Program-made: the position numbers and the translations under genes
Notes under the pieces: generated by a model
The model's input: only the letters and a program-made list of their open reading frames with translations
The model's database searches: none
What the model was told of the DNA's origin: nothing
Virus record (IMG/VR): IMGVR_UViG_3300037507_001618
Location: 1 to 40,568 of that record
Source of the DNA: a virus
Taxonomy: Duplodnaviria; Caudoviricetes
Reading direction: 5' to 3' (one strand)
Length of the DNA stretch: 40,568 nt
Part shown: one piece after another, positions 1,574-40,568 of the stretch
Numbering within the stretch: position 1 is the stretch's first letter
Layout of the letters: each line of letters begins with the position of its first letter

Positions 1574-1657
1574 TTATTTGAATAAAAATTGAATATAAAG
1601 AGACAATAAAGTAATTACAACCGCACAACCTGCGGTAATTTGTAATACTGCGAACAT
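1574..1657 (-). CDS. 27-aa hydrophobic micro-protein (single TM-like helix)
   Basis: MFAVLQITAGCAVVITLLSLYIQFLFK*. TGATG overlap with the upstream ORF; ends just before the terminator. Confidence 0.5.
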   Translation of the reverse strand: MFAVLQITAGCAVVITLLSLYIQFLFK

Positions 1658-1755
1658 CACTTTGCTCCAACGAGTTGTGCTAATTGTGCCTGATGACGAC
1701 GCTCTTCTTTTTGTTTTTGTTCTTTGATGAGTTGTAGGAAGTTTAGCTTTTGCAT
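1657..1755 (-). CDS. 32-aa basic, Gln-rich micro-protein
   Basis: MQKLNFLQLIKEQKQKEERRHQAQLAQLVGAK*. TGATG coupling on both sides, with AAGGAGG upstream. Confidence 0.6.
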   Translation of the reverse strand: MQKLNFLQLIKEQKQKEERRHQAQLAQLVGAK

Positions 1756-1892
1756 CACTTGTGTCCCTCCTTTACAAACTTAACACCACGATAGGTTTCG
1801 TTGTATTGTTGGGCTTGTTGTTGCATTTGCTGTTGGTATTCAATACGCTTTTGAGTATCGTATTCAACACCTCTGTAAACGACTTTAGACAT
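1755..1892 (-). CDS. DUF4278-like small protein (45 aa)
   Basis: MSKVVYRGVEYDT...NETYRGVKFVKEGHK* has the duplicated YRGV motif of DUF4278. SD AAGGAG upstream; sits downstream of a glutamine-riboswitch motif, the established context for this family. Confidence 0.85.
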   Translation of the reverse strand: MSKVVYRGVEYDTQKRIEYQQQMQQQAQQYNETYRGVKFVKEGHK

Positions 1893-1924: not shown

Positions 1925-2093
1925 CGTTCCTTCAGTCGGCTTTTGCGTCTATTTTGCACTCTTTTGGAGTAATCTGTTTAATCTCCCAAATCAAATCATT
2001 CTTTGCTTGTTTTGGAATATCAACTCTATAAACTCTCCCAACCATTAACTGTGCTTGTAGGCAAGTTAAAATGAGTGTTTCCATAGATGAACG
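1925..2093 (-). ncRNA. glutamine riboswitch-like aptamer 2 (Downstream-peptide/glutamine-II type) with ~130-nt expanded P2 loop
   Basis: 5' strand CGTTCA-TCTAT (2093-2083); 3' strand ATAGA-CGCAAAAGCCGACTGAAGGAACG (1952-1925). P1 = CGTTC/GAACG, P2 = TCTAT/ATAGA. Confidence 0.75.
1932..2084 (-). CDS. 50-aa two-Cys protein nested in aptamer 2
   Basis: METLILTCLQAQLMV...KECKIDAKAD* from ATG 2084. The ORF track extends it to a GTG at 2138. Confidence 0.65.
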   Translation of the reverse strand: METLILTCLQAQLMVGRVYRVDIPKQAKNDLIWEIKQITPKECKIDAKAD

Positions 2094-2096
2094 ATC

Positions 2097-2348
2097 CGTT
2101 CCGAGTCGGCTTACTTCCGTCCTATTCAGTTTTAGCACTTAAGTCTCACAACATCCTTTCGGAGTTCTGATAGCAATCGGTCTTCTTTTCTTTGGTCTAC
2201 TACATCGTCGTTTTTAACGATGTCCATTAGTTCCCACGCTGCGTCGCAACTTATTGTCACCTGATTGGATTTAGCAAGTTGAGGCGTAGAGATAGAAAGA
2301 AGTGGAACCCATGCTAAAAGCAAAAGTGCTTTAGTCATAGGATGAACG
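2097..2348 (-). ncRNA. glutamine riboswitch-like aptamer 1 (glnA-like) with ~210-nt expanded P2 loop
   Basis: 5' strand CGTTCA-TCCTAT (2348-2337); 3' strand ATAGGA-CGGAAGTAAGCCGACTCGGAACG (2125-2097). CGGAAGTA matches the glnA motif; 3-nt linker to aptamer 2. Confidence 0.7.
2132..2338 (-). CDS. 68-aa two-Cys protein with signal-peptide-like N-terminus, nested in aptamer 1
   Basis: ORF track. Hydrophobic N-terminus, then SCDAAWEL...RLKC. Confidence 0.65.
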   Translation of the reverse strand: MTKALLLLAWVPLLSISTPQLAKSNQVTISCDAAWELMDIVKNDDVVDQRKEDRLLSELRKDVVRLKC

Positions 2349-4780: not shown

Positions 4781-7700
4781 TTAGTTAATACCTGAGATAT
4801 AAATTTGACCGTTTTCTGTGACTACGGTGTATTTAGGATCGGTAGTAATACCATTGTAGGCAACATCTGTCACATTTCCATTAAATCCATTTGAAACACT
4901 CCAATTAAATCCATCTGTGGTAAATCCAACATAACCACCAGTAGCAATACCAATCAGATATTGTGGTGTTTTTACAAATTTATTGACCGGATTGTTTCCA
5001 AAGTATGATGGATGTTTATTAGAAGACTCATAATAATTTAATCCATATGTAGAATTAAATGGTGCAGAGAATACAATACTATTAGGATCATTTGCAGCAC
5101 TTACATAAGACGTTGGAGGACTAAAGGTGACTCCAATTCCTGATGCTGATGAATTATATTTCGCAAGATCATACATTCTTAAGTCTTGAACATATCCATA
5201 ATGCGATTGCGAATTACCTAATCTGGAACCAATGTAAAGTGGTCTCACACCAGAATATGCTGGATTTGCCGTGAATGTAGTAATTCCAACACCGTTTCGA
5301 TAAAGTCTAAAGGTTGATCCTTTTTTCTCTACTGCTAAGTGAGCCCAGGTATTATTAGAAACTGATCCAAATGACTGACCATTGGAAATATTCCAACTAC
5401 CTCCGTCAGTAGAAGAATAATAATACCAAAATCCGTTATATCTGTAAATTAGATGATCTGCAACTGCCGCACTAACACCGGAAGAAACGACCCACCTTCC
5501 CGACCCACCACCAGCATCTAAAGCATTAAACCAACCTTCAATTGTAAAGTCTCCAGTTCCAAGATTAGCAAAAGGATCAATTGAGACTATTAGATTATCA
5601 GTAGTGCCATCAAAGTAAGCACTCGATCCACCATAAGCAGATGATGCTGTCGAAACAACTGTGTCGCCTGTAATAGTGTTAAAGGTTGATATAGTGAGTC
5701 TATTGGTAGAGAATCCGACAGAAGTAAGACCACTTAATGAATCATCAGTATAGAACAATTGTCCGCGTTTGTTTGCAATCACATTTACAGTTCCAATACC
5801 ACCCACCGCGCTGACAGATGTTAGTCCGACAAATGCTGTTTTAGCAGTTCCTACAGGTGTTGTGTAGTAAATAATAGATGTTGCTCCATCCACAGCACCA
5901 GTAAATGGCGCGGCAAACATTACAGATCCTTTGTAAGGGTCTGTTGCAATATCATATTGTGTCGATGGTGGTGTAAAATTAGATGTATATTTTGCAACAC
6001 CATTGTAGAAAATAAAGTCATTTATATTACCAGCCCAGTTGCCACCTGCCCATTGTGGAGCACCAATTCTAAAAGTATCATTAGCAGGATTGAATGTTCC
6101 AGCACCACCGGTAGTTAAAACTGACCCAACACCATCAACATAATAAGTCACTGTAGATCCATTTCTCACCAGAGCATGATGTTTCCAAGTATTTAATGTT
6201 TGATCTACAGATCCACTGCCACCTACACCGCCAGAACCACCAGTCAAATACCATGTATCACCTCTATTTAAAATAGAGTCGGAGTAGGTGCCCCATTCAA
6301 AACCAATAAATCCATAGGTAGTTCCTGTTCTATACTGCCACCATTCCATCGTATAATCTCCAGCAACAGTATTAGTAAATGCTGCCTGAACATAACTTGT
6401 CTGGTTTCCTGTTGGTTTTATCCATAAAGATCCGTTGCCAAACTTACTTTGACCTGTGCTTATTGCTGCACCAACATTAGTAAAGGTGGACGTTCCTGCC
6501 ACACCCGCATTTCTATTTGAAGTATAAGAAACAAAATCAGTTGTAATACCAAGAATGTTGGCATTCGTGCTTGCTATGGATACTATGAATTTATTGCTCG
6601 ATGTAATGCCGATACTTTCAAAATTTCTACCAATGTTTCCATCAAGGATACTGGAAACAAACGTTCCCCTATCAGACCATTCAAGACCATTTGTAGATAT
6701 ACCAAGTTCAGCAACAGAAGAACCATTTGATCCTAAAACATAATAACCATTCGTATAAATTCCCACTCGAATATCATTGAGTCCAAAAATATTATAAATT
6801 GACTGTCCAATACCTACAGCAGTAAAGTCAGTTCCTCTATATGATTCTTCACGGAAGTTGCGAACATTAATATTATTTGTGCTATAACCAACAAATCCTC
6901 GATCGCCATAATAAACATAAGAATTATCACCTTTTAAAATTCCTCTTATTTTTCTATGTCTGTAAGCTGGTGTTGTAAGATCTCCAATAGTATAATAAGG
7001 GACATTAAAAACATTTAATCCAACAGTCCCAATTCCAGCAGTTGCAAAACCAACTTTACTAAAGTCTCCAGTATATGTTGAGGTTGAAGAATTAATATAT
7101 TGAAGTTGTAATCGAAGACCAGAAGCCAAATCACGAGCAATATATTTGATTGGATAGTATGTTGAAGTGCTAAGAGATTGTGTTGTAAAATATCTGGTTT
7201 GATTATAAACTGTGGATGTAACTGGAGATCCATCAAACCAAAATGTCCCATTAAGATAAGAATACATTGAAAATGTATGAATACCAGATACCGTTGGTTT
7301 AAAATAACCCTCAATTGTGGTGTTCCAAGAATAAACATTACCAGAAGTATCAGTTAATCTTGGATAATAATTACTTAAGTTAGTGACATAATCTTTTCCT
7401 GTAATGTAATAGTTGTCAATCATTTTTGTATAATTACCATCTTCACAATTTGAGAAGAATGCAATTTTATCTCTAAATGAACTTATACCAATACTCAACT
7501 GTGATGTTGGTGGTGTAAAGTTCGTTGTATAACCACAGTATCCATTATAGATTCGAATATCATCTAGATAATAATTTGAAGCGCCTGGACTGTATCCATC
7601 AGCACGAGCACCAAAAGATCTACCATAGGTGCTGTTTGAAACATATGATACTGAATCTGTATAACTAAAAGTTTCTGTTCCATCCCAGAATAGTCTTGTG

Positions 7701-10700
7701 GTGCCGCCTTGACGAGCAACGGCAACGTGATACCAAGCGTTCGTCGTAATTCCTGTTTTGATATTATAACCTGCCCATTGAAGACTTGTGCTTGTATAAT
7801 AAACATAATAACTTTGATCAATCCAAATCAGACCTGTTCCACCTCCAGAACCTTGGGGATTAAACCAAAACTCAATTTGGAAATCTCCATATCTAAATGA
7901 GAAGTCGATTCCAGAATCTGCAAACGCAGCATTATTTGAAAAATACCAAGACTTGGTGCCATACTTGAATGTTGTTCCAACACCAACAGGAGCAGAACGT
8001 AATGAATAACTTCCTGCTGGAATTGAGGTTGCAACACTTACAACTCGATCAGTTGCCCCAGTGCCAGTAATGTATGGATCATTGAAATAGGCAGATTGTG
8101 TTTGTGTAATATCATATGTGGTTGTAATTCCAGAAATCGTAATAATATCATTTTTAAGAGAATTCCTAGCAGGGAATTGTTCTGAAGTTACAACAATATT
8201 ATTACCATCTACATAACTTGCTCCAGTAAATTGCTTATAACCTGGTCTACACAACCTCATTGAATTGTCAAGATTTGCCAAAGAAGTTGTAACTCCGAGT
8301 TGATAATAAGATCCATTTGTTGTAGTATCATAACCGATAATATACCATTTGCTACCATCATTTTTAACTTTGGTAATTTTTCCAGATTTTTCTACAATAG
8401 ATCCAAGATTTAAACCAAAGTCAACCCAATTATGTCTGCTTGTATTAATTCCAGTTGTAGGAATTCCTGTAGCATAATTTATCGCCAGATCTCCATATCC
8501 ATTATAAGTTCCATAAGAATTTGACATCAAAAACTCATTTGTAGAAGTGCTATATCCGATTGACTGTCCTCCAGTCCAAGGAATCGTTAAAGAACCAGAA
8601 GAAGGATATTGCCACAATTCTCCAGAAGAACCGTGCCAAAGGTTTTTAAACTCATCTTCTCCACCATTATTTGAAAAGAAAGTATGATTATAGCTGGGAG
8701 CAGAATACTCCCCAGTAACTACTACCGTTGATCCTGCACCAACAATGTCATAAAAATATGTTGATTGTGCAAGATAATAAGATCTTATGCCGACATTTGT
8801 GTATGCGTTTCCACTGGCATTCCTAGGACGACGAGAACCAACGGTCCAATCATAACCATTTGTAGAAATTCCAATATATCCATAATCACCAATCACGACA
8901 AAATTATCTTGAAATACTAATGCCTGTGTCGTCACACTTGTAATATCTGGTAATCTAATGATATTATCAATTGGATCCTTAGGTGCATATGCTTGATAAT
9001 TTGTATTAGCATTATTCAAATTAGCAAGAATGCTAAGATTTTTATAATTTGAATCTCCAACTGCTGTTAAAGGTGTTGTTGGTGGCGTTATATTGAAAGT
9101 TGATTTATCAAATTTTAAGGAAGTTTGTCCATTTGACCCACCAAAAGTTGCAGCAAAGGCAACATATTGTTTTAATGGATCTGTATTAATATCATAAGCA
9201 GCGGTTGGAGTTTGGAATGTAATTCCTGCGCCAACGGTGTATTTGGATGTACCATTGTAAATAATAAAGTCAGATATATATCCACTTAAAGGGTTGCTGT
9301 TAGTGTGTCTAGAATTTCCAAGTCTTATATCTGTTGATGTTGAAGGATTAGTTGTACTGTTTGTTCCTGTACCAATACCAATACCATTTCTATAATAATG
9401 AAGAGTAGAACCAGATCTAATTAAAGCATAGTGAGCCCATTGAGATGCAAGATATTGTCCCCCAAAACTTCCAGATGTTGTAGTTGTTCCTGGAATATAC
9501 CAAGAATCACTTCTGAATAAAAATCCATTGTCATAAGTACCATACTCAAAGAAAGTTTGACCGCTACTATAATAACCCCAAAATTCAATACAATAATCTC
9601 CACCCAAAGGTGGTAATGCACTACCAGTTGTTGCCTTTGTTATTCCTCCACCTACGGATAAACTTGTTGATTGATATTTTGTTTGTGTTGTGCTTAAAGC
9701 AGCACTTTCATCAAGTGGTCCTGTTAAAATACCAACATTCTGTGTATATGGTGCCTTGTTATTATAAATTCTAAAGTCTTGAAGATGACCTTTAAAAAAG
9801 TTTGTTAAATTATAATCACAACCAATATATCGATAATTTACTCCATTCCCATTTTCTCTATAAAAATTAGAATCCGATACTGAAGCTCCTGCTTGAGATC
9901 CATCAATAAACATCTTGGTTGATCCAGATTGTCTTGTAATTAATACGTGGTACCAAGTATTTGCAGATGAAATTGTAGTAGATATAATGTTACTATTATT
10001 TGCATTGTAATAAAGAGTAGAACCTGTGGTGTAAATGTAAGGATATGGTCCTGTTGTTCCAGGTCTACCATCGTAAATAACTTGTGTTCCAGTTAAAGAA
10101 TCAAATCGAACCCAGAACTCAATACTAAATTCTCCTGTGCCAAAAACATACGAAGAATTTCTTGGGTCAGAATATCTTAAATAAGTAATTCCATTAAAGT
10201 AAGTTGATCCAGATCCAAATTTACTTGTTGTTCCTATGCCGATACTAGTATAATTTTTATTTAATGAATTATGAAGTCTAAATGTTGTTGTTGTAATTCC
10301 AACTTTTTCTTTTCCATAATATTGATAAGGTATATGAGGTATTGTAGTCGTATCAATTCCTGCAGTTCCAGTTGTATTAAAATTAGCAAGAATTTCAAGG
10401 TTATTAACATTCGTATCCCCAATTCCAGTTAAAGATGTAGGTCTTGTAAAGTTTGTTGTATAACCACAATAACCATTATAAACTCTCAACCCATTCATAT
10501 GACCATTTAATGGATTAGATGTGCCATCATTCTGGAAACCAATAGACACTTGAGCACCACTTGAGTTATATGAAATATAATCATTTGTATCAGTATAATT
10601 ACTGCCAGTTTGTGTGCCGTTCAAGAACATTTTGGTGACACCATTTGATCTGGCAACGGCAATATGATACCATTGATTTGCACTTAACGTTGATCCAGTA

Positions 10701-13700
10701 ATTTGTGCAGCACTATTAACAAAATAAGTTAAAGCACCAGCATTCGTATAAATTAGTGGATAAACACCATTTGTTTGTGGTCTTTGATCCCACAACACTG
10801 TTGTTCCTACAGTATTAAAGCGAACCCAAAATTCAATTGTAAAGTCATTAGTTCTAAATGAAAGATCATTTCCAGCATATCTTAATCCACCTGTTCCATT
10901 GAAATATGCAGAACCTGTTCCATACGCAGAAGTAGTGGCAACACCAACAACACTGTTGTTTACAAAATAATCAACACTTAAGGTATTAGCACTACCAACA
11001 TTTGCATACATAAAATTAGTGGCAATACCAACTTTACCACCAGATGCGATTACATATACATCATTGCCATCAACTTTTTTAGTAGCTATTCCTTTTACAG
11101 GATTTGTATAATTAATTTCTCTTGCACCAGTTGCATTGCTTGCTAAAACTTCATTCCACTGCGATTCTCCCGTTGGAAAATACTTTGCATAACCTTTATA
11201 AACTTGGAAATCTTGAATATAACCAAGGAAAGCGTTTGAACCATTCCAATAGTTTCCAATTCTCATTCCTGGACCATCATATCTATTAGTATCAGTATAA
11301 ACTCCTTGTATCTTTCCGTTTTGATAGAGTCTTGTAACTCCATTTTTTCTACAAAGAGCAACGTGATTCCATTTGTTTAGATTACTTCTTCCTTGTAAAT
11401 CTAGTCTTGGATCAGTTGTAATTCCAAGAGCAGCATTAGAACCAAAATTAGCCCCACCTATATTTTGCCCGTAAATTCTAGCAGCACCATTTAAAATAAA
11501 GGAGACAGGTGATCCAAGACCCTCAAGACTATAAAGTGCTGGTCGAATACGAGTATTATTATCTACTCTTCCATCAAATAGATACTCATTGCCAGACGTA
11601 TCAGTTGTATTCTTGTAATACATACACTCAATCGTGTAGTCATCAGTGCCAAAATAGAAGGCAGTAGATGCAGTTCCAGTAATCGCAGATGTTGTGCCAT
11701 TGAAGAGTGCTATACCTCTTTGGGCTTTAGATTGATAAGTAATTGTGGTTTGCCCATTTGTTCCGGAGAATGATGCTGCTAAAGCAACATTTGTGGAATA
11801 AGGATCTGAACTTGCTGAAACATAAGACGTTGGAGGACTAAAGGTGACTCCAACTCCTGATGCTGATGAATTATATTTTGCAACATTATACATTCTAAAG
11901 TCTTGAATGTATCCATAATGTGCAGCATTAGTTCCATCATATGTGCTAATGTAAGCTGACCAAGTAAGATTGGTATAAGAACCACTTGATGTAAATGTGC
12001 TTACTCCAACACCATTTCGATAAAGTCTAAAAGTTGTTCCTTTTCTTTCAACCGCTAAATGTGTCCAGGTGTTATTAGAAACTGATCCCCAACTTACTGC
12101 TTCTACAACATTCCAATTACCTCCTGTAGTAGAAGAATAATAATACCAAATACCACTTGCTCTATAGAACATATGCTCACCATAACCATTTCCTGGAGCA
12201 CCCATACATATGACGTAACGGTTTCCAGTATCTAAAGCATTAAACCAACCTTCAATTGTAAAATCTGCAGTTCCTATTCCAGCAAGAGGATTTGATGACA
12301 GCGATAGACTATCACCCGTGCCATCAAAGTAGGCACTACTAGTTCCATAAGCAAATGATGCTGTTGAGATTTGAGTATTACCAGCAACAGTAAAATTACT
12401 ATTTGTAATTACAGTAGAACCAATGCCAGCATTAACGCCATAAAGATAAGTCGCAATACCAGCACTGTTTGTTGCGCTACTAGCAACACTTACAGATGTA
12501 TTAGTAAGTGTCGTGGCAGTTGTTCCAATACCAGCAGATAAGGCAGCAGTATTTACATGAGTGATTGAAATATCAGGATTTTCTGTGTTTAAAGGAGCAG
12601 AGAATGTTAGATACTGGAAGTAATCTGCAAGTGGTGGTGGTGTGAAATTTGCTGTATATTTTGCGTATCCTTTGTAAACACGAGTATCATTTAAATATCC
12701 TTGGAAGTATTCACTTGCGGCACTTGTTCCAACATAAGAAACATTATTTGTTTGTGCTCCACTAATAGGAATTCCAGTATTCGTTAGTGGTTGATCTACT
12801 CCATCAACATATATCTTAAATGATGATCCAGACCTAACCCAAGCAATATGGTGCCAAGTATTGAGACTAATATCAGGTGCATATAAACCATAATTGCCAG
12901 CTCCAGGTCTTGAACTTGCACCAAAAATTGCATTTGCACTACCAGTAGTATCATAAAGACCGGCAATATGAATTAAAGAACTGGTATAAATGAATGCTGG
13001 ATTATCTTTTCCAGATTCAGTTGGATAAACCCAGGTTTCGTATGTGAAATCACCTGTTCCCACATCGATATTAGTGAAACTTAAATAATCATCGGTCCCA
13101 TCAAAAGACGCAGAACTTCCATAATACTTACTGACTGTTGTAGAGATTCCAACACCATTATTGTTGGTTACAGTCTTGTTAAATGAACTTCCATTATAAG
13201 AAGTCATAATACCAGAAATATCAGTCGTCGTTCTTGCGGTATTCAGTGGTAAAAACAATACAAGACTATCTGGTTCTAAAGAGTTATTTGGATTGACTGG
13301 AACTTGAATTCTGTCAATCACTGATGCAGGATTATTTGTTACACAAACTTTACCATTAGCATATCCAGAAGTATATCGTCCACTTGTAACAATGCCACAA
13401 GTCATGTAGGTTGCACCAGACGCTCTTAATGATGATAAAGTAGTATCTCCAATTCCCGTTGAATACCAGTTTTCACCATCTTGTGATACCTCTACATAAG
13501 CACCATTTGTCGAATTGTATTTACCCATTACAAAATAATCAGTGCTTCCTATGCCAGAATAAACAAAAGAAGTATAATTATTAAAAATAGAATTTTCTGT
13601 TTCGTGATCTCCTGCTTTCCATGATGTGCCACCGTCAGTTGAAATTGCTACAGCATTATGTAAGTATGCACTCCGACTACCCCAATCATAAGCAATTACC

Positions 13701-15679
13701 CACCTATTTTTCCCAGCATTATAGGATGATGCTATTGGAGAATAATATGTGTAATCATTAGTGCTTCCACCTTTCAAGTATGAATTATATAAAACTGCCA
13801 TATCTGGTTTTTGGAATGTGGCAGTATTATCTACTTGAGAACCAGAAACCATTGCAGAGGTATAACCAAATCCAACATTCCTTTCACCACCACCGTGCCC
13901 CAAGTTAGTATAAGTTGCAAAGTCAGTTGTAATTGCAACTCTTGAGATTTGAGAGGAAGATTGATAATGAGCAGTAATAATTTTCTTGTTGTCTGGTCCA
14001 GCAGAAATATGGTTTGGTGTATATGCCGCAAATAAAGTTTTAATTCCAACAGGTCCGCCAGAAGAAGTTTTAACTTCATTCCACTTCATATATGAACCAG
14101 AAAAAGAAACACTTGTACTAAAAGCAACTGGAATATAAGTATAATTGCTATATCCACCCGTACCTTTCATTACAACAAGTCGATCTGTTAATGCAATTCC
14201 TGCTTGAGATCCTTGTGGAAAACTCCAACCAGGAATATTACTATTGGTTGGATCCGCCTGTTCATTTATAATATTGGCAAACTCCGCATTAGCAACTTGT
14301 CTCCAACTTGATGGATCAGTAATATTTGTCGTAAATCCTATATTACCTGTTGATGCAACATACCATTTAGATGTTGCCGAATGATAATAAATCTTATAGT
14401 TATAATCATCATTCATGAAGGATGCAAAATCTACATTTCTTGAATAACTTGCTACTCCAACATTTCCATAAAAGTCTGGTGCTAATCTAGCATTCGTCCA
14501 ATTCGATAAGTTTGTTGAGTATGCAAGTCGATTAATTCCAGAAATAACATAATAACCTTGCCCATAATCAATTGACCAAATTCTTGATGTATTATTTGTA
14601 GTTCCCCAGTTAATGCCTGCTGTCTTAATTCCTACAGATACATCACTCCAAGTTACTGCATCATCGGAAGCATATAAGAATCCATCATTCGTTCCAGCAA
14701 AATACTTATTGTTTTTCTTTTCTACAAGAGTAAAATTTTTACCAGATAAAAGTTGAGACTGTAATAAATCTAAATTAGTGGTGCTTACTGTTCTTAAAAG
14801 AGCAGTTGTGATGCCTACAAGATAATATCCAAATGGTGTGAGTGAATTTGCTGCCGCATTTCCATTTATAGTGATTGTGAAATTATTGGAACTTGCGTCA
14901 GTGATTGTTGATGGACTTTGGCAGGTTAATAATACAGTATTAGTGACTGCTGTGAGCGGAGAAATTGGTGGGGTAAAAATAAAATCTCCAACTGTTGTGG
15001 AAGAAGTTTGATACGCAGTAGGAATTGATCCATTAACAAATCGATAGTTGGATATATTTCCCTGAAAAGGTTCCCCAGATCTATAAGGGGTATATCCCTG
15101 CATACCAATTCTTACAGGTTCTGTTGGATTTGGAAGAGTATAACTAGTAGAACTAAAGGCACTTAAAACTCCATTAACAAACAATCTAGTGCCAGTTGAA
15201 TTTCTTGTAACTGCAACATGCTGCCAAGAATTTGTCGTTAAAACATTTGATGCTGTGATAGAAACTGTACCAGTGGGCACAAATCCGTCAGTATCATAAG
15301 ACCAAACAAGATTATTAGAATTATTTGCTACAAACTGCCATACACCACTGTTCCCACTATCTCCCCATTGACATGCAATTACTGAAGATGTATTTGTATA
15401 ACCTGTTGGGTATATCCATGCTTCCATACAGAAGTCATTACTTCCGATGGTAAAAATATTATTATCCAAAATGGATAAATTATCACCACTCCCATCAAAA
15501 CTTACACTACCTCCTACACTTGCCTCAATGGCATCATTAATCGTAGTAGGTGAAGTAGTATTAAATCCTGCTAATCCATCAACGTAATTACTCCCAACTC
15601 CAAATCTTCTAAAATTTTGAAGTCTTTTTCCTTTATCGTTAAAATTAACTGATGTAAGAATATTACCTTTAAAGAGCAT
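4781..15679 (-). CDS. giant (3632 aa) virion/adhesin protein with ~10 LamG/ConA-like domains, a PA14-like domain and beta-propeller-like blades
   Basis: Repeated S-x-x-FDG...DFTIExW...WxHxAxxR...GYIQDxRxY units; SxDGxxW blades; EGYFKPTVSGIHTF...YYPIK segment (~7050-7370). Confidence 0.85.
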   Translation of the reverse strand: MLFKGNILTSVNFNDKGKRLQNFRRFGVGSNYVDGLAGFNTTSPTTINDAIEASVGGSVSFDGSGDNLSILDNNIFTIGSNDFCMEAWIYPTGYTNTSSVIACQWGDSGNSGVWQFVANNSNNLVWSYDTDGFVPTGTVSITASNVLTTNSWQHVAVTRNSTGTRLFVNGVLSAFSSTSYTLPNPTEPVRIGMQGYTPYRSGEPFQGNISNYRFVNGSIPTAYQTSSTTVGDFIFTPPISPLTAVTNTVLLTCQSPSTITDASSNNFTITINGNAAANSLTPFGYYLVGITTALLRTVSTTNLDLLQSQLLSGKNFTLVEKKNNKYFAGTNDGFLYASDDAVTWSDVSVGIKTAGINWGTTNNTSRIWSIDYGQGYYVISGINRLAYSTNLSNWTNARLAPDFYGNVGVASYSRNVDFASFMNDDYNYKIYYHSATSKWYVASTGNIGFTTNITDPSSWRQVANAEFANIINEQADPTNSNIPGWSFPQGSQAGIALTDRLVVMKGTGGYSNYTYIPVAFSTSVSFSGSYMKWNEVKTSSGGPVGIKTLFAAYTPNHISAGPDNKKIITAHYQSSSQISRVAITTDFATYTNLGHGGGERNVGFGYTSAMVSGSQVDNTATFQKPDMAVLYNSYLKGGSTNDYTYYSPIASSYNAGKNRWVIAYDWGSRSAYLHNAVAISTDGGTSWKAGDHETENSIFNNYTSFVYSGIGSTDYFVMGKYNSTNGAYVEVSQDGENWYSTGIGDTTLSSLRASGATYMTCGIVTSGRYTSGYANGKVCVTNNPASVIDRIQVPVNPNNSLEPDSLVLFLPLNTARTTTDISGIMTSYNGSSFNKTVTNNNGVGISTTVSKYYGSSASFDGTDDYLSFTNIDVGTGDFTYETWVYPTESGKDNPAFIYTSSLIHIAGLYDTTGSANAIFGASSRPGAGNYGLYAPDISLNTWHHIAWVRSGSSFKIYVDGVDQPLTNTGIPISGAQTNNVSYVGTSAASEYFQGYLNDTRVYKGYAKYTANFTPPPLADYFQYLTFSAPLNTENPDISITHVNTAALSAGIGTTATTLTNTSVSVASSATNSAGIATYLYGVNAGIGSTVITNSNFTVAGNTQISTASFAYGTSSAYFDGTGDSLSLSSNPLAGIGTADFTIEGWFNALDTGNRYVICMGAPGNGYGEHMFYRASGIWYYYSSTTGGNWNVVEAVSWGSVSNNTWTHLAVERKGTTFRLYRNGVGVSTFTSSGSYTNLTWSAYISTYDGTNAAHYGYIQDFRMYNVAKYNSSASGVGVTFSPPTSYVSASSDPYSTNVALAASFSGTNGQTTITYQSKAQRGIALFNGTTSAITGTASTAFYFGTDDYTIECMYYKNTTDTSGNEYLFDGRVDNNTRIRPALYSLEGLGSPVSFILNGAARIYGQNIGGANFGSNAALGITTDPRLDLQGRSNLNKWNHVALCRKNGVTRLYQNGKIQGVYTDTNRYDGPGMRIGNYWNGSNAFLGYIQDFQVYKGYAKYFPTGESQWNEVLASNATGAREINYTNPVKGIATKKVDGNDVYVIASGGKVGIATNFMYANVGSANTLSVDYFVNNSVVGVATTSAYGTGSAYFNGTGGLRYAGNDLSFRTNDFTIEFWVRFNTVGTTVLWDQRPQTNGVYPLIYTNAGALTYFVNSAAQITGSTLSANQWYHIAVARSNGVTKMFLNGTQTGSNYTDTNDYISYNSSGAQVSIGFQNDGTSNPLNGHMNGLRVYNGYCGYTTNFTRPTSLTGIGDTNVNNLEILANFNTTGTAGIDTTTIPHIPYQYYGKEKVGITTTTFRLHNSLNKNYTSIGIGTTSKFGSGSTYFNGITYLRYSDPRNSSYVFGTGEFSIEFWVRFDSLTGTQVIYDGRPGTTGPYPYIYTTGSTLYYNANNSNIISTTISSANTWYHVLITRQSGSTKMFIDGSQAGASVSDSNFYRENGNGVNYRYIGCDYNLTNFFKGHLQDFRIYNNKAPYTQNVGILTGPLDESAALSTTQTKYQSTSLSVGGGITKATTGSALPPLGGDYCIEFWGYYSSGQTFFEYGTYDNGFLFRSDSWYIPGTTTTSGSFGGQYLASQWAHYALIRSGSTLHYYRNGIGIGTGTNSTTNPSTSTDIRLGNSRHTNSNPLSGYISDFIIYNGTSKYTVGAGITFQTPTAAYDINTDPLKQYVAFAATFGGSNGQTSLKFDKSTFNITPPTTPLTAVGDSNYKNLSILANLNNANTNYQAYAPKDPIDNIIRLPDITSVTTQALVFQDNFVVIGDYGYIGISTNGYDWTVGSRRPRNASGNAYTNVGIRSYYLAQSTYFYDIVGAGSTVVVTGEYSAPSYNHTFFSNNGGEDEFKNLWHGSSGELWQYPSSGSLTIPWTGGQSIGYSTSTNEFLMSNSYGTYNGYGDLAINYATGIPTTGINTSRHNWVDFGLNLGSIVEKSGKITKVKNDGSKWYIIGYDTTTNGSYYQLGVTTSLANLDNSMRLCRPGYKQFTGASYVDGNNIVVTSEQFPARNSLKNDIITISGITTTYDITQTQSAYFNDPYITGTGATDRVVSVATSIPAGSYSLRSAPVGVGTTFKYGTKSWYFSNNAAFADSGIDFSFRYGDFQIEFWFNPQGSGGGTGLIWIDQSYYVYYTSTSLQWAGYNIKTGITTNAWYHVAVARQGGTTRLFWDGTETFSYTDSVSYVSNSTYGRSFGARADGYSPGASNYYLDDIRIYNGYCGYTTNFTPPTSQLSIGISSFRDKIAFFSNCEDGNYTKMIDNYYITGKDYVTNLSNYYPRLTDTSGNVYSWNTTIEGYFKPTVSGIHTFSMYSYLNGTFWFDGSPVTSTVYNQTRYFTTQSLSTSTYYPIKYIARDLASGLRLQLQYINSSTSTYTGDFSKVGFATAGIGTVGLNVFNVPYYTIGDLTTPAYRHRKIRGILKGDNSYVYYGDRGFVGYSTNNINVRNFREESYRGTDFTAVGIGQSIYNIFGLNDIRVGIYTNGYYVLGSNGSSVAELGISTNGLEWSDRGTFVSSILDGNIGRNFESIGITSSNKFIVSIASTNANILGITTDFVSYTSNRNAGVAGTSTFTNVGAAISTGQSKFGNGSLWIKPTGNQTSYVQAAFTNTVAGDYTMEWWQYRTGTTYGFIGFEWGTYSDSILNRGDTWYLTGGSGGVGGSGSVDQTLNTWKHHALVRNGSTVTYYVDGVGSVLTTGGAGTFNPANDTFRIGAPQWAGGNWAGNINDFIFYNGVAKYTSNFTPPSTQYDIATDPYKGSVMFAAPFTGAVDGATSIIYYTTPVGTAKTAFVGLTSVSAVGGIGTVNVIANKRGQLFYTDDSLSGLTSVGFSTNRLTISTFNTITGDTVVSTASSAYGGSSAYFDGTTDNLIVSIDPFANLGTGDFTIEGWFNALDAGGGSGRWVVSSGVSAAVADHLIYRYNGFWYYYSSTDGGSWNISNGQSFGSVSNNTWAHLAVEKKGSTFRLYRNGVGITTFTANPAYSGVRPLYIGSRLGNSQSHYGYVQDLRMYDLAKYNSSASGIGVTFSPPTSYVSAANDPNSIVFSAPFNSTYGLNYYESSNKHPSYFGNNPVNKFVKTPQYLIGIATGGYVGFTTDGFNWSVSNGFNGNVTDVAYNGITTDPKYTVVTENGQIYISGIN
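5103..5650. repeat. intragenic duplicate of ~11821-12365 (one LamG domain)
   Basis: Long near-identical stretches, e.g. cataagacgttggaggactaaaggtgactccaa.tcctgatgctgatgaattatattt in both. Confidence 0.85.
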
Positions 15680-35923: not shown

Positions 35924-36295
35924 TCAACTCGCGTTATTGCGTCTTGGACGATATGCAAATAAGTTCGTTGGTGGATCTGGTTTCATCCACTCTTCTATTT
36001 TATTAAATTGCTCCTCACTATAAAAGTCTTGCTGAACATACCACAACTTCCAGTGCTCGTGTCCCTTTGACTGGTTACAATCGTGGCAGCAGCATACCAC
36101 ATTTTTAGTGAAGTCTGCTCCACCTTTTGATTGTGGAACAATGTGGTCGATTGTGAGATTCTCTTCTGATCCACAATAAGCACATTGATGATTCCATTGT
36201 TCTTTTATATGTTGCCTCCACATTCGTTTTGCCTCCCCAGAACTTGTTGCGTGTAACTGAAACAAGTATTCTTTTGGAGAGTGTAGAGGTCCCAT
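35924..36295 (-). CDS. HNH endonuclease
   Basis: CAYCG...LTIDHIVPQSKGG...NVVCCCHDCNQSKG. Confidence 0.92.
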   Translation of the reverse strand: MGPLHSPKEYLFQLHATSSGEAKRMWRQHIKEQWNHQCAYCGSEENLTIDHIVPQSKGGADFTKNVVCCCHDCNQSKGHEHWKLWYVQQDFYSEEQFNKIEEWMKPDPPTNLFAYRPRRNNAS

Positions 36296-39070: not shown

Positions 39071-39565
39071 TCATATTTTTTCAAGATTTTCTACAAGTGT
39101 TTGGAGTTCTTGTAGGGTGGCGTCGGATTTAATCCAGTTTGCTCTTGAAGATATTACCCATATATTATCAGGAGTATATCCTTTTCCAGGTTCTTTTTGA
39201 TCTAAACTTGGATTTCTTGCGTCTCTTTTGTTATTTGTTGATACAAGAGGTATTCCAAGTAAAGGACAAGTTTCTGGAATAACAATATCGTTAATAGTTA
39301 TGGTAAAAGGTATTCCCTTTCTTTTTGCTCTGTGTTGAGCATTATGAAACATTTTATATCTGCGGTCGCTACACTTTCTTTCTTCTACAGGTTTTTCTAT
39401 AGTATTTCTTCTCGCCCGTTCTTTTCTTCTATAACACCCACAACTTCTAACTTTCCCACCAGGTTTTATAGAACTTAAAAATATATTTTTTTCTATTCCA
39501 CACTCGCATAAACATTTTGCTATTCTACCTTTAGGGGCAGATTTTATATCTAAAATACACAACAT
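39071..39565 (-). CDS. putative free-standing homing endonuclease (HNH-like)
   Basis: N-terminal CxCxCG...SCGC; RAKRKGIPF; SLDQKEPGKGYTPDNIWVISSRANWIK resembles the SLDRID.xGY..xN...N..K nuclease motif. Confidence 0.75.
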   Translation of the reverse strand: MLCILDIKSAPKGRIAKCLCECGIEKNIFLSSIKPGGKVRSCGCYRRKERARRNTIEKPVEERKCSDRRYKMFHNAQHRAKRKGIPFTITINDIVIPETCPLLGIPLVSTNNKRDARNPSLDQKEPGKGYTPDNIWVISSRANWIKSDATLQELQTLVENLEKI

Positions 39566-39652: not shown

Positions 39653-40568
39653 TCAAAGAGCGTTGCCCCGGGGCAATACCTCCTCTGGAAAAACAAAGCG
39701 TTCGTGTGGCTGGTCAACAGGTGCCATCCACGCTCTTATGCCTTCGTTAAGCAATATATTTTTTGAATAAAATGTTTCAAATTCCGGATCTTCAGCAGCA
39801 CGAATCTCCTGACTTACAAAATCATAAGCCCTCAAATTCAACCCCAGTCCGATAATCCCTATACTACTAGTCCAGAGCCCCATCACTGGCACGAACAACA
39901 TAAAGAAATGAAGCCAACGCTTATTACTGAATGCGATTCCGAAAATCTGAGACCAGAAGCGATTGGCAGTAACCATCGAATAGGTCTCTTCTTCTTGAGT
40001 CGGTTCAAATGCTTTGAAAGTGTTTGCTTGGTCACTGTCTTCAAATAGTGTGTTTTCTACTGTTGCTCCGTGAATGGCACACAATAAGGCACCACCAAGA
40101 ATACCCGCTACGCCCATCATATGAAACGGATTTAGCGTCCAGTTGTGGAAACCCTGAAGGAATAGAAGGAACCTGAAGATTGCTGCCACACCAAAGGAGG
40201 GAGCAAAGAACCAACTGGACTGCCCCAGTGGATACATCAGGAACACAGAAACGAATACTGCGATAGGACCAGAAAACGCAATGGCATTATAAGGTCTAAT
40301 ACCGACCAGACGAGCAATCTCAAACTGACGCAACATAAATCCGATTAAGCTGAAAGCCCCGTGGAGTGCCACAAAAGTCCAGAGTCCCCCAAGTTGGCAC
40401 CACCTGACGAAATCCCCTTGAGCCTCAGGACCCCAGAGAAGAAGAAGAGAATGACCCATAGAATCTGCTGGAGTGCTAACTGCCGCAGTAAGAAAGTTTG
40501 CACCCTCAAGATAGGAACTTGCCAACCCGTGAGTATACCAACTCGTAACGAAAGTTGTCCCAGTAAGC
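39653..40568 (-). CDS. psbD: photosystem II D2 protein (5' end outside window)
   Basis: Frame is open to the edge ([22 protein letters not shown]...); [10 protein letters not shown]; C-terminus [10 protein letters not shown]. Confidence 0.98.

Follow-up and report, generated by a model that had tools for sequence, protein, structure and literature searches.

Two genes nested in the loops of a cyanophage tandem glutamine-riboswitch-like leader, and covariation pointing to one interlocked fold

How might an RNA that resembles a metabolite sensor fold, and what could it control, when each of its two consecutive units holds a whole gene in one of its loops? The question is raised by the minus strand of a 40.6-kb virus record (IMG/VR IMGVR_UViG_3300037507_001618, analysed over all of its 40,568 nucleotides and hereafter called the window), which carries thyX, glutaredoxin, tail and baseplate genes, and psbA. 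The nearest matches to its riboswitch region are Synechococcus and Prochlorococcus myoviruses, and the source of the window is therefore a T4-like cyanophage. Elsewhere the window has a gene for a 3,632-residue tail/virion protein (4781-15679), at least eight successive paralogous genes for virion proteins with common phrog_24074/8510/3545 domains (16778-38512), and two free-standing endonuclease genes, one adjoining psbA (35924-36295, 39071-39565, 39653-40525).

On the minus strand a promoter (2388-2359) and the RNA element (2348-1924) precede a DUF4278-like gene, behind which come two tiny ORFs and, at 1569-1552, a terminator, in what is a putative operon. The promoter is of the sigma-70 type (TTGACT-18-TATAAT; an 11/12 consensus match), with a predicted transcript start near 2352-2354. 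The DUF4278-like (IF17-like) gene (1755-1892; PF14105, phrog_5049) has a short product of 45 residues with two YRG motifs, the Pfam PF14105 match of which (E 0.0011, 19.7 bits) lies under the cut-off of 25.3; a YRG-type gene accounts for 282 of the 295 ORFs downstream of tandem units. According to the available text of Klahn 2018 (PMC6212724), picocyanobacterial DUF4278 proteins do not have the C-terminal GS-binding region. A 33-residue ORF (1657-1758; phrog_545, E 3e-4) overlaps the DUF4278-like stop, and a hydrophobic 28-residue ORF (1574-1660), an open reading frame for which no Pfam or PHROG family match was found, comes last before an intrinsic-terminator-like hairpin and T run (1552-1569). 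In a relative, L420, the YRG gene runs on into sequence resembling the separate 33-residue ORF (window 1657-1892), so the two ORFs of the window may stem from one duplicated or split gene. Another relative (L064) has a manA RNA (positions 775-972; 174.9 bits) some 225 nt downstream of its glutamine element.

Unit 1 starts with CGTTCA from 2348 and has a 211-nt P2a loop and a 3' half at 2119-2097; after a GAT linker (2096-2094), unit 2 starts with CGTTCA from 2093 and has a 130-nt P2b loop and a 3' half at 1947-1925 (1947-1924 when nucleotide 60 is included). P2a pairs TCCTAT (2342-2337) with ATAGGA (2125-2120), and P2b pairs TCTAT (2087-2083) with ATAGA (1952-1948). By reading frame and family conservation, ORF1 (2338-2132, 68 residues) lies within the P2a loop and ORF2 (2084-1932, 50 residues) belongs to the same two-Cys family. 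The preliminary description had read the region as two consecutive minus-strand units, each P2 stem around one gene, and on direct reading every coordinate checks out, including the ORF1 stop 6 nt ahead of the P2a 3' strand and the ORF2 stop, the TGA at 1934-1932. It had also put the nested AUGs in the P2 5' strands, which is right for the A and U of both start codons; the G is the first loop base. The last codons of ORF2 double as the P2b 3' strand, J2/3 and the P3 strand, its stop overlapping the GAA of loop E. In relatives P3 changes alter the last residues of ORF2, and RNA constraint thus overrides the protein.

With respect to class, an Rfam scan of the whole window returned no glutamine riboswitch match. 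In 20 relatives, however, 28 of 29 short-loop units match RF01739 at E<=1, 13 of them at or above the gathering score (35 bits), as against 0 of 11 long-loop units. The glnA-type (glutamine-I) identity proposed earlier is thereby supported, as is the suspicion that covariance scans miss such split aptamers; riboswitch censuses consequently undercount. Four relatives (L004, L042, L050 and L055) are letter-identical to the window in the conserved segments and therefore serve as natural loop deletions; RF01739 gives their unit 2 35.4-37.2 bits and their unit 1 24.3-24.6. The other identity that had been offered, Downstream-peptide (glutamine-II, RF01704), was rejected, its best score in the 20 relatives being 28.9 bits, where the gathering threshold is 33, and a covarying P3 being present, as opposed to a pseudoknot without P3.

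Numbering of the glutamine-I core follows the available parts of PMC5393176 and PMC11477058, in which loop E is an AGUA strand joined to a GAA strand; ligand binding forms a Watson-Crick 23-60 pair (PMC11477058 and PMC6212724, as far as their available text goes). In the window the within-unit 23-60 pairs are both mismatches (G-G and C-C), AGUA occurs solely in unit 1 and GAA solely in unit 2. These features are at odds with a tandem of independent aptamers that steepen the dose response, which is how the available text of Sherlock 2022 (PMC9481103) classes tandem glutamine riboswitches, i.e. as pseudo-cooperative. Each short-loop unit does align alone to RF01739, and in the commonest variant both units have an identical P3 octamer, so that either pairing is possible.

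Covariation among relatives decides between the two pairings. From 339 unit-1 matches, 239 unique tandems were obtained, 43 matches being dropped for want of an adjacent second unit (mostly chance matches, five with long linkers) and 24 for want of the unit-2 3' half; two scans left P3 free and excluded the common base in order to enrich variants. Nucleotide 23 of unit 1 is a Watson-Crick partner of nucleotide 60 of unit 2 in 239/239 tandems (168 C-G, 71 G-C), and nucleotide 23 of unit 2 pairs with nucleotide 60 of unit 1 in 231/239, as compared with 157/239 within each unit; at loci found by protein, the pairs form across units in 72/72 and 69/72 and within units in 1/72. The P3 octamers of the 239 tandems change in step across units. 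At 74 short-loop loci, variant-rich by choice, the outer P3 pairs form across units in 74/74 (three pair types) and 72/74 (four types), and the linchpin 23-60 pairs of the swapped structure in 74/74 and 71/74, whereas the independent structure manages 19/74 and 35/74, respectively; the two central P3 positions are mostly C-A mismatches. In one relative (L523) both P3 strands are 3 nt shorter and complementarity is retained. In P1, a C at unit-1 position 55 goes with a G at unit-2 position 5 in 5/5 loci, possibly a single event, the unit-2 partner base being unchanged. The covariation counts are over related sequences and are not independent events; several pair types, in both orientations, recur in different backgrounds. 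Exchange of P2 strands across units was rejected (a mean of 2.1-2.5 of 5 bp across versus 4.6-4.8 within, 232 loci).

A P1/P2/P3 three-way junction is thus supported with P2 covarying within units and P1 and P3 across them. With P1, P3 and the 23-60 pair all covarying between the two units, these cannot be independent; the earlier picture of two separately folding consecutive aptamers fails on this point, and with only half of loop E per unit we regard independent tandem sensors as very improbable. The covariation argues strongly for an interlocked fold, very probably one in which an outer aptamer encloses a circularly permuted inner one. The outer aptamer combines the unit-1 5' half with the unit-2 3' half and measures 425 nt end to end (2348...1924): its P1 5' strand (2348-2344, C1 = 2348) has 1929-1925 as predicted partner, and J2/3 (C21, G22 and G23 = 2119-2117) together with the AGUA strand of loop E occupies 2119-2112, G2117 covarying with C1924. 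The inner aptamer combines the unit-1 3' half with the unit-2 5' half, its P1 being a hairpin (2101-2089; 2101-2097 with 2093-2089) closed by the 3-nt loop GAT, in which G2096 is nucleotide 60. One P3 duplex is common to both, the unit-1 strand at 2111-2104 having unit-2 1941-1934 as predicted partner. The unit-2 3' half supplies in turn J2/3 of the inner aptamer (C23 = 1945), P3, the loop-E GAA, the outer P1 3' strand and C60 (1924). The available text of PMC9964418 gives a 99-nt riboswitch match in phage S-CREM1, suggestive of a model spanning both units; a single RF01739 alignment across both was rejected, two separate matches of 33.5 and 20.4 bits being found instead.

Does the interlocked RNA bind glutamine? 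The ligand-contact positions C1-G59, G2-C58 and G22 are present in both cores of the window. The invariance of core nucleotides at RNA-found loci was imposed by the search patterns; protein-found loci retain the core in 156/160. The outer core has a complete loop E (2119-2112 against 1933-1930). The inner core is without a canonical one, its J2/3 being without AGUA and its J3/1 consisting of two bases, and because loop E is incomplete it is not classed as a canonical glutamine-I member; the inner aptamer may not bind ligand. A relative, L352, has G59 of the outer core changed to A with the rest intact, possibly a one-pocket variant. The non-canonical inner core would suit a structured RNA that has ceased to sense glutamine and serves another ligand, a protein site or stability, as would the phage form not having been found in host chromosomes (12 pattern matches in 185,579 genomes, both Prochlorococcus matches being on phage-type contigs). 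Such a loss of sensing appears most improbable, however, given that C1, G22, C58, G59 and the 23-60 pair, the glutamine contacts of the solved structure (roles in the available text of PMC6698751), are present in both cores, and that an NtcA-type box and the YRG gene indicate a link with nitrogen. The sequence evidence makes it likely that the element is a glutamine-binding RNA.

Long loops with nested frames extend well beyond the window. Scanning viral contigs with the 3' half of a unit alone returned 120 loci (about 1,900 stretches are estimated for the collection), with the nearest upstream 5' half either 10-28 or 138-224 nt away and none between, the pattern having missed one unit-2 variant. 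Three viral-contig scans, eight isolates and the window together provide 177 distinct long loops (66 of unit 1, 111 of unit 2). Each of the 177 has, 3-7 nt past CGTTCA, a start codon whose frame stays open through the loop, the two other forward frames being open in 1 and 0, and 155 have a P2 of at least 5 bp, compared with a mean of 51 (maximum 66) with shuffled partners. The stops are equally regular: 104 of the 111 unit-2 genes share a stop codon within the core, and each of the 66 unit-1 genes stops from 16 nt before to 6 nt after the junction. The P2 covariation and nested-ORF conservation that the preliminary description had looked for in homologues are both found, P2 covarying across the long loops and the nested ORFs forming one two-Cys family under purifying selection across relatives.

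Loops are filled and empty in every combination. The 302 complete tandems divide into SL 104, SS 83, LL 59 and LS 56 (S, short; L, long), and since 83 have neither nested gene, the nested genes are dispensable. Loop state differs in one of 15 locus pairs with both flanks at least 90% identical. Among cultured phages both loops are filled in P-SSM4 and P-HM1, one in P-SSM2, P-RSM6, S-SRM01 and DSL-LC02, and none in S-PM2 and S-CREM1; P-SSM4, P-HM1, P-RSM6, S-SRM01 and DSL-LC02 have hypothetical CDS annotations for nested genes. A search by protein only found 160 loci, of which 152 lie in a unit by script and 4 on inspection; contig ends truncate 3 others, and in the last one the 3' half has decayed. 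In relative L426 (1630-1800) ORF2 is intact, the unit-2 3' half is decayed and no DUF4278-like gene follows, apparently a gene that outlived its aptamer. Of 139 short unit-2 loops, 34 share a single 22-nt P2b hairpin allele (L004 and L126, for example) and include both C60 and G60 types, which suggests cassette exchange between phages via the conserved halves. Judged from sequence, the layout is widespread in cyanophages and structurally well supported.

All 177 nested products have exactly two cysteines, 31-40 residues apart, and a hydrophobic N-terminus; 103 align as a single family with a mean identity of 27% and both cysteines invariant. Pooled dN/dS is 0.088 for ORF2 (41 homologues) and 0.18 for ORF1 (40 close homologues), the pairs not being independent in either case. 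PHROG 504, 6471 and 13397, of unassigned function, cover most family members; the window's own ORF1 and ORF2 proteins match none of the three at E 0.01. A Pfam search with the 103 proteins gave no family common to more than one, an Atlas search gave no match, and in 300 of 301 host-family genomes no homologue was found, the sole match being a phage contig. Structure prediction gives ORF2 a two-helix hairpin (pLDDT 86). A fold search of the PDB with a nested protein produced no match at E<=0.001, and the named top viral fold matches were only cyanophage proteins of unassigned function; sequence matches to Protein A were rejected, being repeats of a short helical stretch no copy of which passes alone. 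Our guess, from the models, is that the nested protein may be a disulfide-closed hairpin, membrane-tethered or exported. Two database proteins, P0001 (106 residues) and P0005 (97 residues), join an ORF1-type to an ORF2-type protein through the inner P1 region and are either natural fusions or artefacts of assembly or gene calling.

What the nested genes are doing in the loops can be read in more than one way. The loops could simply be safe harbours, the riboswitch controlling the downstream gene only and the nested genes riding on a strong promoter with no glutamine regulation. All four loop states occur, in C60 and in G60 types alike, and the third loop, i.e. the inter-unit linker, holds a 194-residue homing-endonuclease-like gene in relatives L269 (11-592, minus strand) and L303, both of which accord with passive occupancy, as does the small folding change predicted at nested starts (below). 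A mere harbour does not, however, account for a start codon that always lies 3-7 nt from the P1 strand and never deeper in the loop, nor for the tightly placed ends of the nested genes, nor is it easily reconciled with closure and nested translation being unable to coexist on a single molecule. We consider it unlikely, but worth serious attention. The linker gene (phrog_314, E 4e-5; phrog_10820, E 6e-9), which has what we take to be a GIY-YIG-like start, has an AUG preceded, as in P2, by CCT, and its frame continues across unit 2 to the core stop that unit-2 genes use. Seven further relatives (L228, L258, L111, L390, L391, L409 and L450) have linkers of 20-67 nt closed by a CCTA...TAGG stem; in L228 and L258 the linker resembles what deletion of the endonuclease gene would leave behind.

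Upstream, an NtcA-type box, GTA-N8-TAC (2397-2410, no strand assigned), is centred about 55 nt from the aptamer and lies 8 nt upstream of the -35. In the window by itself the motif occurs no more often than chance allows (14 copies against 9.7 expected); across loci it occurs at most 100 nt upstream in 216/271, versus 12/269 and 5/240 in controls and 7.6 in shuffles. Of these boxes 153 sit some 55 nt ahead of the aptamer, at neither the activating (-35) nor the repressing (-10) position for NtcA, and 24 over the -10/start region. That cyanomyoviruses in general have NtcA sites is already published (PMC3037559, available text). As to expression, 16 RNA runs contain part of the stretch, and contigs from six of them were examined. 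One contig, from a relative, spans 1888-2340 intact with both nested genes, and contigs of relatives from two studies end at 2354 and 2355 plus 4 letters, followed by adapter, a weak hint that these ends adjoin the predicted transcript start. In runs X1 and X2 the operon has far greater contig depth than the sequence on either side, but these runs were selected for containing the stretch and their depth cannot rank genes, so that no weight is placed on it. Excision of a loop from the RNA was rejected, the joints that skip loop 2 bearing letters typical of short-loop relatives and the 1888-2340 contig being intact; contigs cannot rule out rare RNA processing.

Folding of the free RNA of the window gives the inner P1 hairpin a probability of 0.88, P2a 0.40, P2b 0.13 and outer P1 none. 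It also predicts, at 0.92, an 8-bp anti-Shine-Dalgarno hairpin (1924-1901; 1924-1917 with 1908-1901), which begins at C60 and covers the ribosome-binding site of the DUF4278-like gene. That site is unpaired at 0.04 in the free RNA, 0.47 in the swapped fold and 0.16 in the independent fold. Over 225 of 231 loci, adopting the swapped fold opens the downstream site in 56 and closes it in 4 of the C60 types (n=67); because it opens in 37 and closes in 58 of the G60 types (n=158), folding provides no general ON rule. At nested starts accessibility changes on closure from 0.36 to 0.29 and from 0.34 to 0.29 across loci, the drop exceeding 0.05 at 47/64 unit-1 and 42/103 unit-2 starts, and the ORF2 start of the window gains (0.25 to 0.37). 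Given these small or opposite changes, secondary structure alone does not predict a switch-off. The nearest-neighbour model, in which neither tertiary contacts nor the ligand is represented, makes the closed fold about 10-15 kcal/mol costlier.

The mechanism that we propose is as follows. At low glutamine the inner P1 and anti-Shine-Dalgarno hairpins would form, long-range P2 and outer P1 being mostly open, and the nested genes would be translated with the DUF4278-like gene held off. Glutamine would stabilize P1 and the G2117-C1924 pair, which would take the first base of the anti-Shine-Dalgarno hairpin and so open the ribosome-binding site; for Synechocystis gifB, an ON mechanism via an anti-RBS starting at nucleotide 60 has been proposed (Klahn 2018, PMC6212724, available text). 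Ribosomes on ORF2 would traverse P2b, J2/3 and P3 and stop in loop E, and both start codons are in P2. Since nested initiation would cover the 5' strands of P1 and P2, and unit-2 genes mostly stop in the core, closure should exclude nested translation; a given mRNA would be closed or translating its nested genes, never both, and high glutamine would favour the DUF4278-like peptide at the expense of the nested proteins.

Not all parts of this proposal are equally secure. On the models, it is fairly probable that the DUF4278-like gene is ON at high glutamine, and rather doubtful that glutamine measurably switches the nested genes off. Taken together, sequence and models lead us to favour, with modest confidence, a leader that is one interlocked two-pocket riboswitch, in which glutamine would turn the DUF4278-like gene on and closure would exclude nested translation. 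The fullest version, with two pockets (one permuted) cooperating through a common helix and a rise in host glutamine shutting the nested genes while turning on the IF17-like peptide, is put forward tentatively. A different balance would hold if nested translation were dominant and kept long-loop aptamers unfolded, glutamine mattering only when the nested genes are idle; a ribosome stopping at 1934-1932 would melt the anti-Shine-Dalgarno hairpin 8 nt downstream and couple the DUF4278-like gene to ORF2. ORF2 does end within the core, adjoining C60, the predicted P2 pairing is low in the free RNA, and P0001 joins ORF1 to ORF2 through inner P1. Such gating by ribosomes is nonetheless improbable, given that compensatory changes preserve P2 and every cross-unit pair at loci with long loops; the closed fold is therefore under selection with the genes in place.

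If the interlocked two-pocket riboswitch is correct, a ligand-binding fold spans 425 nt and encloses two complete genes, and one aptamer would be sensor, expression platform and coding sequence at once. Tandem glutamine riboswitches, at least in cyanophages, would then be one interlocked fold, not two separate sensors, and the interlock offers a possible route to true cooperativity. It appears that an aptamer can remain under selection though split by 130-210 nt of coding sequence, and other riboswitch classes may likewise hide from covariance scans. The NtcA-type box, riboswitch and small proteins would make a concrete nitrogen-sensing circuit in abundant cyanophages, in which host nitrogen sensing and nested-gene translation would compete on one RNA.

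Group I introns have ORFs in peripheral loops, and like them the phage element accommodates a gene in a loop outside its folded core; unlike them it has no intron core and no sign of excision, and its RNA is a putative metabolite sensor. With respect to previous work on tandems, the available text of Sherlock 2022 (PMC9481103) counts 157 glutamine riboswitch doublets, and there, as in PMC2864571 (also available in part), tandem units are separate aptamers, whereas in the phage element they are predicted to interlock. In the searched places of the Weinberg 2010 alignment (PMC2864571), the loop columns of which are wide, S-PM2 unit 2 and P-SSM2 unit 1 are single short-loop rows, no long-loop or linker-spanning row was found, and P-SSM4, both loops of which are long, is without a glnA row. 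Nested genes or strand exchange are not described in the available parts of PMC9964418, PMC9004378, PMC12379486, PMC2864571, PMC6212724, PMC9481103, PMC7357161, PMC5393176 and PMC3037559, nor did a full-text literature search, which covered neither Ames and Breaker 2011, Ren 2015 nor Additional files 1, 3 and 7 of Weinberg 2010, return a description.

The glutamine-II class (RF01704) has a near-identical ligand pocket and precedes small DUF4278-like ORFs (PMC6698751, available text), but is a pseudoknot without P3 or loop E and has its ORF downstream, whereas the phage element has P3, loop E and nested ORFs. A domain-swapped glutamine-II dimer has been seen in crystals (PMC7357161, available part); that swap joins separate molecules and is presumed absent in vivo, whereas the one predicted here is between units of one RNA. 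The closest known system is the Synechocystis gifB/IF17 leader, which, going by the available text of PMC6212724, has in common with the phage element the core nucleotides, three-way junction, loop E and 23-60 pair, as well as an anti-RBS from nucleotide 60, a DUF4278-type gene downstream and an NtcA-type box upstream, the box lying over the -10 in the gifB leader and mostly upstream of the -35 at phage loci. The phage element differs from that leader in being phage-borne, in having two cores, one circularly permuted, that are predicted to exchange P1 and P3 strands, and in having P2 loops that carry whole genes with their starts in P2.
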